A DNA stretch of 32,000 nt from Planctopirus limnophila DSM 3776 (GCF_000092105.1 NC_014148.1:4680001-4712000), one strand, 5' to 3'. Positions 1,938-28,148 are shown, counted from the stretch's first letter. Numbers and translations are program-made. Notes: generated from the sequence alone by a model not told the origin.

Positions 1938-3500
1938 ATGAAACTGAAACGATGGCTGTTGACTCTATGCACTCTGGCTTTATGCGTGGTAAACCACTCG
2001 GAAGTTCCTTCAGCTCTGGCTGCTGAAACCACAGGAAAGCCCCAGGTTTCCCGGCCCAACATCGTGCTCATCTATGTGGACGATCTCGGTTATGGCGACA
2101 TCAGTTGTCATGGCGCCACGCTGGTCAAAACGCCCCATGTCGATCGATTGGCTCGCGAAGGACTCAACTTTTCTGATGGACACTCACCGTCGGCCACTTG
2201 CACTCCCTCGCGCTACGCCATGCTCACCGGCGAATATGCCTGGCGGAAAAAAGGGACTGGAGTTCTTCCGGGCGATGCCAGGCTGATTATTGAACCGGGC
2301 CGCCGCACTCTCGCTTCGACACTTCAAAAGGCGGGCTATCGCACCGGTGTCGTCGGGAAATGGCATCTGGGTTTAGGAGACGAAAAACTTAACTGGAACG
2401 GCGTCATCAAACCCGGCCCTCTCGAAGTGGGCTTTGATGAATCGTTCATCATGGCCGCGACCGGCGATCGAGTGCCATGTGTCTACGTTGAGCAGGATCG
2501 TGTGCTCAACCTTGACCCGAACGACCCAATCAAAGTCCAGTTCGGCAAACCAATTGATCCTGCCCTACCCACAGGGAAATCGCATCCAGAATTGCTCACG
2601 GTCATGAAGCCGAGCCACGGTCACGACATGACGATTATCAATGGTGTCAGCCGGATTGGCTATATGACAGGTGGCAAGGCCGCTCTCTGGAACGATCAGG
2701 AGATGGCCGATGTCTTTACCTCAAAAGCACTCAAGTTCATGACCGATCATTGGGCTCGCCATGCCGATCAGCCGTTTTTCTTGTTCTTTTCGCTGCACGA
2801 TATTCACGTTCCCCGCTTGCCTCACCCCCGCTTTGTCGGCAGCACCAGCATGGGCCCGCGCGGCGACGTGATTGTCGAAATGGATTGGTGTGTCGGTCAG
2901 GTGCTCGACAAGCTCGCGGCCTTAGGAATTGACGACGAGACGATGGTCATCTTTACCAGCGATAATGGCCCCGTCGTCGATGATGGATACAAAGATGAAG
3001 CCGTCACGAAGCTGAGTCATCATCAACCGGCTGGCCCTTATCGAGGTGGTAAATATAGTGCCTATGAAGGAGGGACTCGCGTCCCCTTCATTGTCCGCTG
3101 GCCAGGTCGCATCCAGCCGGGAACATCGAACGCGTTGATGTGTCAGATCGACCTCATGGCCTCGCTCGGCAAACTGGTGGGGCAACCTGTCCCACCCCAG
3201 GAAGCGTATGACAGTATTGATGTCCTTCCCGCTTTATTGGGTGAGTCACAGGCAGGTCGAGAGCAACTGGTGGAGCACTCGGGAGTTCTGGGCCTGCGCG
3301 CGGGCCCCTGGAAACTGATTGAGCCCGGCAAAGCCCCGCGTGTCTTCCAGCAGACCAATACCGAAACCGGCCAGCTCCCCAGACCTCGCCTGTTTAATCT
3401 CGAAGAAGACCCCGGCGAAACCCGCGACCTCGCCGAAGACCAACCCGAAAAAGTCAAAGAACTCCAAGCCCTCCTCGAGAGAATCAAAGGTGAGATCTAA
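1938..3500 (+). CDS. Secreted arylsulfatase (formylglycine-dependent sulfatase family)
   Basis: ATG 1938, TAA 3498-3500. Signal peptide LLTLCTLALCVVNHSEVPSALA. Metal-binding DDLGYGD. Canonical C-x-P-x-R motif in SATCTPSRYAMLTGEY. GKWHLG, HDIHVP, FTSDNGP and GGKYSAYEGGTRVPFIVRWPG are all intact. Confidence 0.92.
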   Translation: MKLKRWLLTLCTLALCVVNHSEVPSALAAETTGKPQVSRPNIVLIYVDDLGYGDISCHGATLVKTPHVDRLAREGLNFSDGHSPSATCTPSRYAMLTGEYAWRKKGTGVLPGDARLIIEPGRRTLASTLQKAGYRTGVVGKWHLGLGDEKLNWNGVIKPGPLEVGFDESFIMAATGDRVPCVYVEQDRVLNLDPNDPIKVQFGKPIDPALPTGKSHPELLTVMKPSHGHDMTIINGVSRIGYMTGGKAALWNDQEMADVFTSKALKFMTDHWARHADQPFFLFFSLHDIHVPRLPHPRFVGSTSMGPRGDVIVEMDWCVGQVLDKLAALGIDDETMVIFTSDNGPVVDDGYKDEAVTKLSHHQPAGPYRGGKYSAYEGGTRVPFIVRWPGRIQPGTSNALMCQIDLMASLGKLVGQPVPPQEAYDSIDVLPALLGESQAGREQLVEHSGVLGLRAGPWKLIEPGKAPRVFQQTNTETGQLPRPRLFNLEEDPGETRDLAEDQPEKVKELQALLERIKGEI

Positions 3501-3524
3501 CCACGAGCAATTGACGTGTCATCA

Positions 3525-3630
3525 ACGAGCCGGAAGCGTCAGCGACGGGCATTTGTATTGTCATAATATCTAGTATATTCTGCCACGAAGAAAAGTAGAG
3601 AAGCACCCGTCGCTCACGCTTCCGGCTCGT
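3525..3630. repeat. REP doublet (REPIN-like long hairpin) abutting the 3' end of the RAYT gene
   Basis: Arm CGAGCCGGAAGCGTCAGCGACGGG (3526-3549) pairs with CCCGTCGCTCACGCTTCCGGCTCG (3606-3629): 24 positions with one central C.C mismatch (3540/3615), plus A3525-T3630. The spacer (3550-3605) is 56 nt and AT-rich. It ends 2 nt before the RAYT stop codon. Confidence 0.9.
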
Positions 3631-3632
3631 GA

Positions 3633-4154
3633 TCATTGTGGCTCGCTTTGGTCGAGCCGTGTGTTGTAGACCGACATCTGCTCGCCTTGTTCGTTGATAA
3701 CGTAGGCTATGGCTGACTCCAGCGATTTCATGTCATTGAGGTATCTCGTGCTGCCGTGTTGAGTCCAGCGGTCGCGGTCCGCATCCTCTTGAAAAGCTTC
3801 CCGTAATCGACGACTCGACCACGCTCTCAGATCACTCATGACCTTTTCCGGCGATATCGGCGCGTTCAGCAGAATATGCACATGGTTGCTGCAGACGTGA
3901 ACGGCATGAAGACTCCACGAACGATGAGTGCATACCTCGCGAATAGTCTTCAGGACGACTTCACGGTGTACGTGATTGAGCTGATAAGGTGCCTGGCGTA
4001 ATGACTGGTGGCGACGAGCTTCCAGTTCTTCATCAGGAGCAACTAACGGAGTGCCAGGAAGATTGTGCTGACGATCCACCGATCCCGGATCCCGACCATG
4101 CAGCCATGTGCCATACGTCGTGAACGTGATGAAGTAAGCCAGCGGCGGATTCAA
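3633..4154 (-). CDS. REP-associated tyrosine transposase (RAYT; IS200-like Y1/HUH transposase family)
   Basis: 173 aa. TTG start at 4152-4154 with GAGGGA about 10 nt upstream; stop at 3633-3635. N-terminal YFITFTTYGTWLHG, HUH motif in SNHVHILL, and a C-terminal catalytic-Tyr-type motif AIAYVINEQ. The gene is bracketed by REP doublets at 3525-3630 and 4188-4291. Confidence 0.82.
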   Translation of the reverse strand: MNPPLAYFITFTTYGTWLHGRDPGSVDRQHNLPGTPLVAPDEELEARRHQSLRQAPYQLNHVHREVVLKTIREVCTHRSWSLHAVHVCSNHVHILLNAPISPEKVMSDLRAWSSRRLREAFQEDADRDRWTQHGSTRYLNDMKSLESAIAYVINEQGEQMSVYNTRLDQSEPQ

Positions 4155-4187
4155 GGTGCGATATCCCTCGACATACGTGTGCTAATA

Positions 4188-4291
4188 CGAGCCGGAAGCG
4201 TCAGCGACGGGCATTTCTCGACTTTTCTTCGTGACGATTCACACTAAACATCAAGACAATACAAATACCCGTCGCTCACGCTTCCGGCTCG
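4188..4291. repeat. REP doublet (REPIN-like long hairpin) 33 nt upstream of the RAYT start
   Basis: The same two 24-nt arms as at 3526-3549/3606-3629 occur at 4188-4211 and 4268-4291, with the same central C.C mismatch. Pairing extends inward (GCATTT 4211-4216 with AAATAC 4263-4268, one mismatch). The 56-nt spacer is roughly the reverse complement of the spacer in the first doublet. Confidence 0.9.
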
Positions 4292-4298
4292 TGGCGCG

Positions 4299-5528
4299 TT
4301 ACATACCAACTAACCCTCGGGCCGTTTCGAGTTCTTTTCCCAGGCCCGCGATGATCGCTTCCGTGCGGGGTTGTCCCGGGAGGACATTCCAGGTGTAGGT
4401 TTCCACTTCCAAGTGCGGGGCGTAGGGAAGAGCCTCGACGGCTTTAAGAGCCGCTTCAAGATCCGGCCTCGTCGTGAAGAGCGGGCCAATCGAAACTTCC
4501 GAGATGGGCACATGGTAATGCACGCGCCAACTCTCGGCCTGCTGGAATTCGAGTGGTGGTGCTGCCAGAAATTCTTCCGTCAGATCGACCTGGCGAATGA
4601 AGCCACTCTCCTGCCGGTCGCCCGAGATGCAGCGGGCGATCGTCTGGTGCAGGTAACGCGGCTCGATATAGCTTTTAAGAGCCGCCTGAACTTCGGGGGT
4701 GAGGGGTTGCCTCGCATCGATGGCGCAGCTTAAGTGAACCTTGTTGATGCGAATACCGGCTCGTTCAATGGCATGAATGGCCTGATCGGCTGGTTCGAAT
4801 TCAACCGCCTGATGGCAGACGTCGTAGCACAGCCCCAGATGCGTTCTGGCCTGAGAGAGCACGCCCTTCTCTTCCGCCTGACGAAACAACTGCTCGAAAA
4901 AGGCAATCGCCTCATCGGTCGTTTCCAGCAGGCAGAGTGGTTCAGGTTCAATCGCCAGCCGAATCAGGCGGCCAGTGGAATCATGCAGGTCATCGAGGGC
5001 CATGGCCAGATCGAGTAATTGACGAATACAAATGCTCGTAAAATCACCCGTGGGTTCATGCGGCTTGAACGCGAGTGGCAATGTTGACAGGCTCCCTTGC
5101 AGATCTTCGGGGAGCAGTGCCGCAAGAATGCGGGCACAATTCAAGGTGTAATCGTACCGCTGCGGAGACGACCAGTTGGGAAGATAGACCTGATCTTTGA
5201 CGCGCTCGGAGTGAAAGTTTCCGTAAGGGAAGGCATTGAGTGTGTAGCAGATGAGATTTCGTGAGGAAAGCGCCGCGCGAAGTTCTTCGAGAGCCTGGGG
5301 CGTAGCGAGTAACTCATCGATGATGGTGGCTTGCAGCCATAAGCCGACGGCGAGTTCGCCACCACTGGCCTGGCGAATAGGAAGGGCGAAGGTATCAAGA
5401 CCTTGAATCACTTCAGCGAGAGTCTGAGCCGGATGAACATTGGTGCAATAGCTGAGGGGCAAAAGTGGAAAGGTCATGAGCTCTTCCGGCTGTGGGTTCG
5501 CAAGCTGAATCTGGGTTCTCTTCGGCAC
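4299..5528 (-). CDS. eboE: Xylose-isomerase-like TIM-barrel protein, EboE-like (sugar phosphate isomerase/epimerase superfamily)
   Basis: 409-aa ORF with an alternative ATG at 5477 (MTFPLLPLSYCTNVHP...). The segments LSYCTNVHPAQTL, YTLNAFPYGNFHSERVKDQVYLPNWSSPQRYDYTLNCARILAALLPE and LRLAIEPEP match my recollection of the EboE family. This is memory of family motifs, not a search. Confidence 0.55.
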   Translation of the reverse strand: MPKRTQIQLANPQPEELMTFPLLPLSYCTNVHPAQTLAEVIQGLDTFALPIRQASGGELAVGLWLQATIIDELLATPQALEELRAALSSRNLICYTLNAFPYGNFHSERVKDQVYLPNWSSPQRYDYTLNCARILAALLPEDLQGSLSTLPLAFKPHEPTGDFTSICIRQLLDLAMALDDLHDSTGRLIRLAIEPEPLCLLETTDEAIAFFEQLFRQAEEKGVLSQARTHLGLCYDVCHQAVEFEPADQAIHAIERAGIRINKVHLSCAIDARQPLTPEVQAALKSYIEPRYLHQTIARCISGDRQESGFIRQVDLTEEFLAAPPLEFQQAESWRVHYHVPISEVSIGPLFTTRPDLEAALKAVEALPYAPHLEVETYTWNVLPGQPRTEAIIAGLGKELETARGLVGM

Positions 5529-20053: not shown

Positions 20054-20081
20054 TCCTTCTCCCGTCAGAACGGGAGAAGGA
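20054..20081 (+). terminator. Hairpin downstream of the MFS gene (terminator-like, no U-tract)
   Basis: CCTTCTCCCG (20055-20064) pairs perfectly with CGGGAGAAGG (20071-20080), with loop TCAGAA and an extra T20054-A20081 pair. It lies 57 nt after the stop. No T-run follows on either strand, so its function is uncertain. Confidence 0.4.
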
Positions 20082-21639: not shown

Positions 21640-21828
21640 ACTGACTGACACCCAACCTCCTGTCAGAATTCGCTTTCACAATGCCCATCTACCCACCGAC
21701 ACAGCCCAAAGTCTCTTCCAGCAACGACGAAAGCAGTTATAAAAAGGCACCCGGTGTTCTATGCAACACCGGGTGCTTTCATTGAGTCTAGGATTTTACC
21801 GAAACGAAAAGACTCTCAACCAGCAACT

Positions 21829-28106: not shown

Positions 28107-28148
28107 CAACAAAATCGCCCGCCTGATGTGAATCATCAGGCGGGCGAT
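28107..28148 (-). terminator. Rho-independent terminator for the Cys-rich protein gene
   Basis: A perfect 15-bp GC-rich stem, ATCGCCCGCCTGATG (28114-28128) with CATCAGGCGGGCGAT (28134-28148), has a 5-nt loop. On the minus strand it is followed by TTTTGTTG. It lies 134 nt downstream of the stop at 28282. Confidence 0.7.

Follow-up and report, generated by a model that had tools for sequence, protein, structure and literature searches.

Quentin et al. (2018; BMC Genomics 19:475, PMC6006769) divide the Y1 transposases into class 1 (IS200), class 2 (TnpA-REP/RAYT) and a small class 3. Class 3 proteins, of which 24 were known in 2018 (PMC6006769), are about 178 residues long, have a conserved N-terminus and carry the motifs NHVH, W[TA] and YV[VI][AENY]EQ; their hosts are mainly Planctomycetes, Acidobacteria and Proteobacteria (PMC6006769). 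The genes are flanked by REP-like 'atypical secondary structures' with the 5' foot CnGA, and Solibacter has about 600 class 3 REPs and three class 3 genes (PMC6006769). The same authors suggest that class 3 may lie between insertion sequences and REP systems that have been domesticated (PMC6006769). Table S1 of that paper (Additional file 2), in which single REPs are folded as small hairpins of -7 to -8 kcal/mol, gives two REPs for PlimA01 / ADG69454.1 of Planctomyces limnophilus, whose genome also encodes canonical RAYTs of class 2.2 and their GTAG REPs. We found no follow-up paper on class 3 in the later literature.

The window analysed here is a stretch of 32,000 nucleotides from Planctopirus limnophila DSM 3776 (NC_014148.1:4680001-4712000), and all positions are counted from its first letter. 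A sequence-only reading had picked out a 173-residue HUH/Y1 ORF lying between two repeat elements. The ORF is present (3633..4154, minus strand, TTG start) and the two elements are each 107 nt long (3525-3631 and 4187-4293), consisting of two inverted copies of CGAGCCGGAAGCGTNAGCGACGGG; the 24-nt arm and its near-perfect complement differ, in each element, by one mismatch (GTCA versus GTGA). The order of the unit is [REP> spacer <REP] leader-ORF [REP> spacer <REP], with the feet of both inner REPs directed toward the gene. The outer-left REP (3525..3554, plus strand, a 30-nt direct repeat) has the foot ACGA(G) and the small hairpin CCGG-AA-GC-[GTCA]-GC-GA-CGGG. It is followed by the left spacer (3550..3605, 56 nt, 32% GC), which is inverted relative to the right spacer, and by the inner-left REP (3605..3631, minus strand, GTGA loop), whose foot points toward the gene and which lies 2-3 nt past the stop codon. 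On the other side of the ORF are the leader (4155..4187, minus strand, 33 nt), in which GAGGGA precedes the TTG start by 9 nt, the inner-right REP (4187..4216, plus strand, GTCA loop, foot toward the gene), the right spacer (4212..4267, 56 nt, 34% GC) and the outer-right REP (4267..4293, minus strand, GTGA loop). The gaps to the gene are as the earlier reading gave them, 33 nt (4155-4187) on one side and, according to where the arm boundary is drawn, 2-3 nt on the other. It was also right that the unit fills the gap between two convergent genes: a sulfatase gene (1938..3500, plus strand) ends at 3500 and a gene for a 409-residue protein (4299..5528, minus strand) ends at 4299. Both lie outside the unit and serve as synteny anchors.

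The frame of the elements is made of two direct-repeat families, a 30-mer (3525-3554 and 4187-4216) and a 27-mer (3605-3631 and 4267-4293). Between the two elements the arms are repeated directly, and each element has one and the same C.C mismatch on the plus strand, whereas the spacers are mutually inverted, being identical at 43/57 positions as reverse complement and at 27/58 in direct alignment. Spacer GC is 32-34%, against 55% for the window. With up to three mismatches, the 24-mer arm CGAGCCGGAAGCGTCAGCGACGGG occurs four times in the 32 kb (3526+, 3606-, 4188+ and 4268-), every copy at this locus as had been claimed, and matches were absent from 100/100 dinucleotide-preserving shuffles of the window. 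A scan allowing six mismatches found no relic arms outside the locus in the 32 kb. Folding of the 107-nt elements as ssDNA, a check that the earlier reading had proposed, gave -32 to -40 kcal/mol for both (z = -7.7 to -10); on ssDNA a doublet would form one 24-bp hairpin of this stability and not two small hairpins.

The elements in the window have no T-tract and are not called by the terminator scan, and no Rfam family matches in the window. Inward-facing promoters in both AT-rich spacers were considered and found unsupported: a sigma-70 scan of 3400-4400 was empty, a result to be read with the proviso that planctomycete promoters may differ from the sigma-70 model. Other perfect hairpins in the window, with stems of 12-15 bp (28114-28148, 20054-20081 and 21747-21776), are unlike the REP in sequence and are probably terminators. 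An exact look-up of the Y1 protein gave no entry, and the sulfatase was matched exactly only by read-assembly contigs (Logan SRR017854/5; 1.8 kb), which end 52 nt past its stop codon, directly after the first arm. The local repeat by itself would be expected to cause such a break, which is thus silent on the genome-wide REP copy number.

The window protein matches the Pfam Y1_Tnp profile with 42 bits against a cut-off of 23, in agreement with the family proposed from sequence. It scores 28 bits against the NCBIfam REP_Tyr_transpos model (NF047646; cut-off 80), which places it outside the RAYT sequence family, and 37.3 bits against the IS200/IS605 TnpA model (NF033573; cut-off 55), which likewise places it outside that family. 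The HUH and tyrosine residues, whose alignment the sequence-only reading had put forward as a check, did align. H91, H93, W130, Q132, Y151 and Q156 are invariant in 37 sequences, and in the window protein they lie in SNHVHILL (H91-V-H93), W130-T-Q132 and AYVINEQ (Y151 to Q156). Invariant N-terminal residues in the same alignment include A6, Y7, Y14, W17, G20, R21, G24, V26, D27 and H30. A profile search of PDB sequences returned spurious SETD2 matches only (E 0.02-0.4) and reached no solved TnpA; since profiles cannot tie class 3 to the solved TnpAs, a fold search was needed. A confident AlphaFold model of the window protein (pLDDT 83, pTM 0.78), which places the HUH motif in a β-strand and Y151 in the C-terminal helix, was compared with the PDB by Foldseek. 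The top match is 4er8_A [E 5e-5, TM 0.50/0.52], E. coli TnpA-REP bound to a REP hairpin, and the next fold matches are the IS200, ISDra2 and IS608 TnpAs. At least 800 homologous proteins were found at E ≤ 1e-5 in genomes and metagenomes, nearly all with one contig per cluster.

The protein has the features by which class 3 was defined: NHVH in S-N-H91-V-H93, W[TA] in R-W130-T-Q, the tyrosine motif in Y151-V-I-N-E-Q156, a length of 173 residues and the invariant N-terminal residues listed above. Its four REPs are hairpins preceded by ACGA or CACGAG as the foot; none of the arms in the window has a GT[AG]G foot, the foot there being C-n-G-A-G, and a search of the window for the canonical GTAG REPs of P. 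limnophilus was empty. By these sequence characters the gene is a class 3 TnpAY1 gene and not a canonical RAYT. The RAYT or REPtron-like unit that had been proposed therefore stands in its architecture, which is family-wide (37/40 loci at ≥ 55% identity), and falls in its RAYT identity (28 bits versus 80; no GT[AG]G foot). The published record settles the matter of novelty. Listed REP 1, ACGAGCCGGAAGCGTCAGCGACGGGCATTT, is identical to window 3525-3554 and 4187-4216, and listed REP 0, CACGAGCCGGAAGCGTGAGCGACGGGT, is the reverse complement of window 3605-3631. Both strings equal the PlimA01/ADG69454.1 entries of Table S1 (PMC6006769), so the locus is already in the literature. The 2018 catalogue already includes it as a REPtron-like unit of class 3, and the novelty implied by the sequence-only reading gives way to confirmation of a known locus. 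What is new relative to PMC6006769 is the doublet geometry, a REP that hardly varies across phyla, stop codons placed within the REP loop, the inverted cassette and the premature stop in P. ephydatiae.

Comparison of arms from many genomes suggests what the REP itself is. The window has the P-type REP, GAG CCGG AA GC GTNA GC GA CGGG; around more distant homologues we found an S type (Solibacter/Legionella), GAG CCGC GA CC GTNA GG GA GCGG, and a T type, GAG CCCG GA AC GTCA GT GA CGGG, and the REP type follows the protein clade. All fit a model in which a 5' foot that hardly varies, C-n-GAG, comes before a hairpin with an outer stem CCNN/NNGG, an internal loop of tandem R-A/G-A, a 2-bp inner stem and a GTNA tetraloop. 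In 120 distinct REP cores the covariation of the proposed pairs is 0.189, compared with 0.053 ± 0.009 for shuffled cores (0/500 reach the observed value), the inner-stem pair is GC (100), CG (15) or AU (2), and 74.9% of cells are paired in the proposed register as against at most 45% in slid registers. With few independent REP types represented, this covariation gives moderate support to the predicted small hairpin. The term 'REP doublet' used earlier for each element was well chosen, its arms being small-hairpin REPs. Position 15 of the arm takes all four bases and corresponds to the third base of the GTNA loop. We had considered the C.C mismatch at this position as a strand-specific recognition mark and dropped the idea, the small-hairpin model accounting for it as the third loop base. 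REPs normally differ between related species. The P-type core is conserved to at least 95% at each position apart from the loop base and the last base, values that are an upper bound since sampling favoured near-matches, and its conservation persists where the associated proteins are only 52-65% identical. Such invariance, seen in several Planctomycetota orders, in Abditibacteriota and in two or three proteobacterial MAGs, is unusual for REPs.

The linkage of gene and REPs was examined in 80 metagenomic loci encoding homologues. Arms are present on both sides of the gene in 37/40 evaluable loci at ≥ 55% protein identity and in 11/23 below 55%. The common layout is [REP> <REP], a leader of about 20 nt, the ORF and [REP> <REP], with the inner feet toward the gene; L139, for instance, and likewise the genome contig L023, have a REP-flanked unit as in the window but with short loops. 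Longer arrays of arms occur beside the gene or apart from it: in L142 (2260-3330) 6 arms precede the gene and 8 follow it, on both strands, L163 (3013-3420) has 11 minus-strand arms downstream with a 33-nt period, and L013 (2255-2383) has a same-strand tandem run of arms, the period in L163 and L013 being 33-35 nt.

In 30 of 78 loci (about 40%) the downstream REP begins 13 nt before the stop codon. The C-terminal ...EPEA is then read from the 5' bases of the REP, and the T-N-A of its GTNA loop supplies the stop; the codons are ...GAG CCG GAA GCG T[A/G]A, an overlap also present in L023 (2183-2206). The window ORF ends just before the REP, in ...SEPQ (3636-3647, AGCGAGCCACAA; AGC GAG CCA CAA). 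These codons resemble the 5' end of a REP, and we infer from the resemblance that they may be a relic of the overlapped state.

The P-type REP is widely dispersed. At least 120 8-kb blocks from many GTDB genomes contain the 24-mer with position 15 free; among the blocks listed, the gene is present in 1 of 120 and the other 119 are without it. Carriers among the matches listed are Gemmataceae, Isosphaeraceae, Planctomycetaceae, Phycisphaerae, a complete Abditibacteriota genome and Alcaligenaceae and Lysobacterales MAGs. The proteobacterial carriers, two or three MAGs, are possibly the result of bin contamination. Most dispersed copies among the matches listed form tight doublets, in which a 24-bp stem closes a loop of about 9 nt. 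Each lineage has its own loop length: it is 52-56 nt in Planctopirus, about 18 nt in Abditibacteriota and, in one Phycisphaeraceae MAG, 64-66 nt. Around the Planctopirus gene the REPs are confined to the unit, both in the 32 kb of the window and in the sequence examined from two relatives (20 kb and 14 kb). The Phycisphaeraceae MAG CAZSBB01 has at least 35 blocks with the REP. It contains 21 dispersed doublets whose arms are almost perfect and whose spacers keep a length of 64-66 nt but are only ~50% identical, a pattern which implies that selection or gene conversion would have acted on the arms after insertion. The possibility that these spacers are copy-specific palindromes arising by inverted flank duplication was rejected (self-complementarity 0.37, against 0.42 between copies).

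Four of 94 doublets (L002 3016-3098, L043 6384-6474, L078 6292-6372 and L116 3150-3230) lie inside locus-specific perfect palindromes of 12-15 nt, several of them followed by T-runs, where about 0.1 would be expected by chance. They suggest that insertion into terminator-like hairpins happens now and then; the idea that complementary locus-specific flanks mark insertions in general was discarded on the same count of 4/94. BLAST of the left element against plasmids gave no match. In the scan of viral contigs a tight REP doublet was seen on one contig only (IMG/VR UViG_3300047160_035965, 1379-1434), and with a single such contig the element is not phage-borne.

The unit was compared across four Planctopirus-type assemblies: the window, P. 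ephydatiae CP036299 (L121), VFQR01001308 (L127) and a JGI contig (L128). They differ by 7-13% in nucleotides, and in all of them the unit lies at the same site, between the same sulfatase and EamA-side genes. This comparison with related genomes, which the sequence-only reading had called for, supports a gene that is inherited vertically and is single-copy at the level of the exact protein. The complete P. ephydatiae genome has one place only for that exact protein. The flanking genes align directly (88-92%, window versus L121 and L127), whereas the inner-arm cassette of leader and ORF aligns with L121 and L127 as the reverse complement only (87-89%) and with L128 directly (93%). The leader is conserved in the orthologues and inverts along with the ORF. 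The inverted cassette spans window 3631-4187, L121 9884-10450 and L127 3932-4490. Its breakpoints are the inward-facing REP feet, and the orientation of the flanking genes and of the outer spacers is kept. The left spacer of the window matches the orthologous spacers of L127 and L128 directly (87.5-91%). That of P. ephydatiae (L121 9804-9859) is flipped relative to it and resembles the right spacers in direct orientation, so spacers can invert between their own arms. Cassette orientations follow phylogeny, {window, L128} against {L121-L127}, with one orientation in six P. ephydatiae-type assemblies. One inversion in the history of the genus explains this pattern, for which recombination between arms or template switching is sufficient; a role of the enzyme in it is speculation.

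The P. ephydatiae orthologue carries TAC>TAA at codon 7 (LNPPLA*FITF...; L121 9944-9946) in 6/6 assemblies (L121-L126). The annotated protein of 148 residues begins at an internal GTG and is without the invariant N-terminal strand. Judged from its sequence, this copy is probably a recent pseudogene and inactive.

The locus is, with high probability, a REPtron-like class 3 TnpAY1 unit, in which the enzyme would copy or move its cognate REPs while the gene stays in place and is inherited vertically. By analogy with E. coli TnpA-REP and the IS608 and ISDra2 TnpAs, the protein would recognise each REP on ssDNA as a small hairpin preceded by its foot. Tyr151 would serve to cut and rejoin the strand, His91 and His93 would hold the metal, and REPs or REP doublets would be copied or moved to new intergenic sites; the gene itself would stay put and pass from parent to offspring. 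We infer the binding, the cleavage site and the mobilisation of REPs by this protein from those relatives. The reading brings together the fold, the catalytic residues, the family-wide REP flanks, the hairpin covariation, the gene-less doublets elsewhere and the orthologous position, all of which were observed. Against it weigh the confinement of the REPs to the gene in the 32 kb of the window and in the stretches of two relatives, and the single long hairpin that a tight doublet would form in place of two weak small ones.

That the locus is instead an autonomous IS200/IS605-like insertion sequence, its ends being the 107-nt elements and the whole 769-bp unit moving, is quite unlikely. With 83% complementarity over 106 nt, the two elements recall terminal inverted repeats, the Y motif (Y----Q) is similar to that of class 1, Solibacter has three class 3 genes, and horizontal spread is suggested by the near-identical REP that Planctomycetota, Abditibacteriota and some proteobacterial MAGs have in common. 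However, in four assemblies with nucleotide differences of 7-13% the gene occupies the same orthologous site, its protein clusters are almost always on a single contig, no TnpB is adjacent and the score is under the IS200 equivalog cut-off; moreover, gene-less REP doublets far outnumber gene copies (119/120 blocks listed), and there were no plasmid matches and one viral match. The invariance of the catalytic residues across the family, the maintained gene-REP linkage and the tracking of protein clade by REP type speak against the repeats being host structural elements (terminators, mRNA stabilisers or protein-binding sites) beside a domesticated Y1 remnant that no longer moves REPs, as does the behaviour of the window elements, which are without T-tract and escape the terminator scan. 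We consider that explanation unlikely, while acknowledging on its side the doublets between convergent genes, the near-perfect arms of the Phycisphaeraceae MAG around spacers that are ~50% identical at a constant 64-66 nt, and the 4/94 doublets inside locus-specific palindromes followed by T-runs. Host use and mobilisation of REPs are not mutually exclusive.

The inverted cassette raises the question of a DNA-inversion switch, in which the Y1 enzyme or recombination between arms flips the cassette and the spacers. The cassette of the window and L128 is indeed inverted with respect to P. ephydatiae and VFQR01, with breakpoints exactly at the inward REP feet, and the left spacer of P. ephydatiae is flipped too. 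A switch is nevertheless highly improbable: the orientations follow phylogeny and a single ancient event is enough, all six assemblies of the P. ephydatiae type agree in orientation, ordinary recombination, or template switching during replication, between inverted repeats of 24-106 nt accounts for the flip with no need of an enzyme, and a simple scan found no promoter in the spacers. Quite unlikely as well, like the insertion-sequence reading, is a self-delimited cassette, in which the enzyme would cut at the two inward REP feet and so could excise or invert its own gene, the REP would encode the C-terminus (N/S/D-EPEA) and stop of the protein, and the invariance of the REP would reflect a dual constraint of coding and recognition. 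The loop base would then act as a stop (A/G) or allow read-through (C/T), coupling REP identity to the C-terminal end of the protein.

A re-discovered published example matters little alone. The side observations provide concrete handles for work on class 3, namely the larger family, the invariant REP, the small-hairpin motif, the stop within the REP and the cassette inversion; the family, with at least 800 members at E ≤ 1e-5, is much larger than the 24 proteins of 2018.

Among known systems, the E. coli TnpA-REP/RAYT REPtron (class 2.2; 4er8) shares with the window the HUH-Y1 fold, of which it is the best structural match, and a single-copy gene between inverted REP pairs; the E. coli REPs are dispersed over the genome. 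It differs in the foot, which is GT[AG]G in RAYTs and C-n-GAG in the window, and in the Y motif, the window having Y----Q as in IS200; in the window REP the internal loop is GA-rich and the tetraloop is GTNA, and in many class 3 members the ORF ends inside the REP. The IS200/IS605 TnpAs (IS608, ISDra2 and IS200) have the same fold, matching catalytic residues and hairpins adjacent to the gene, but the window gene is not multi-copy, has no TnpB and keeps an orthologous chromosomal position, and its flanks are symmetric REP doublets whereas IS ends are distinct on left and right. REPINs (Bertels and Rainey, 2011; PMC3116915) likewise consist of two inverted REPs of ~25 nt and a spacer in a hairpin of ~110 nt, and class 3 doublets flank the Y1 gene and are also dispersed. 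The class 3 REPs belong to a different REP family, however, and in most carrier genomes the spacer is only ~9 nt, while one MAG keeps spacer length and not spacer sequence. With the class 3 TnpAY1 systems (PMC6006769) the window shares the motifs, the CnGA foot, the host phylum and the REPtron-like flanks, and nothing essential differs.
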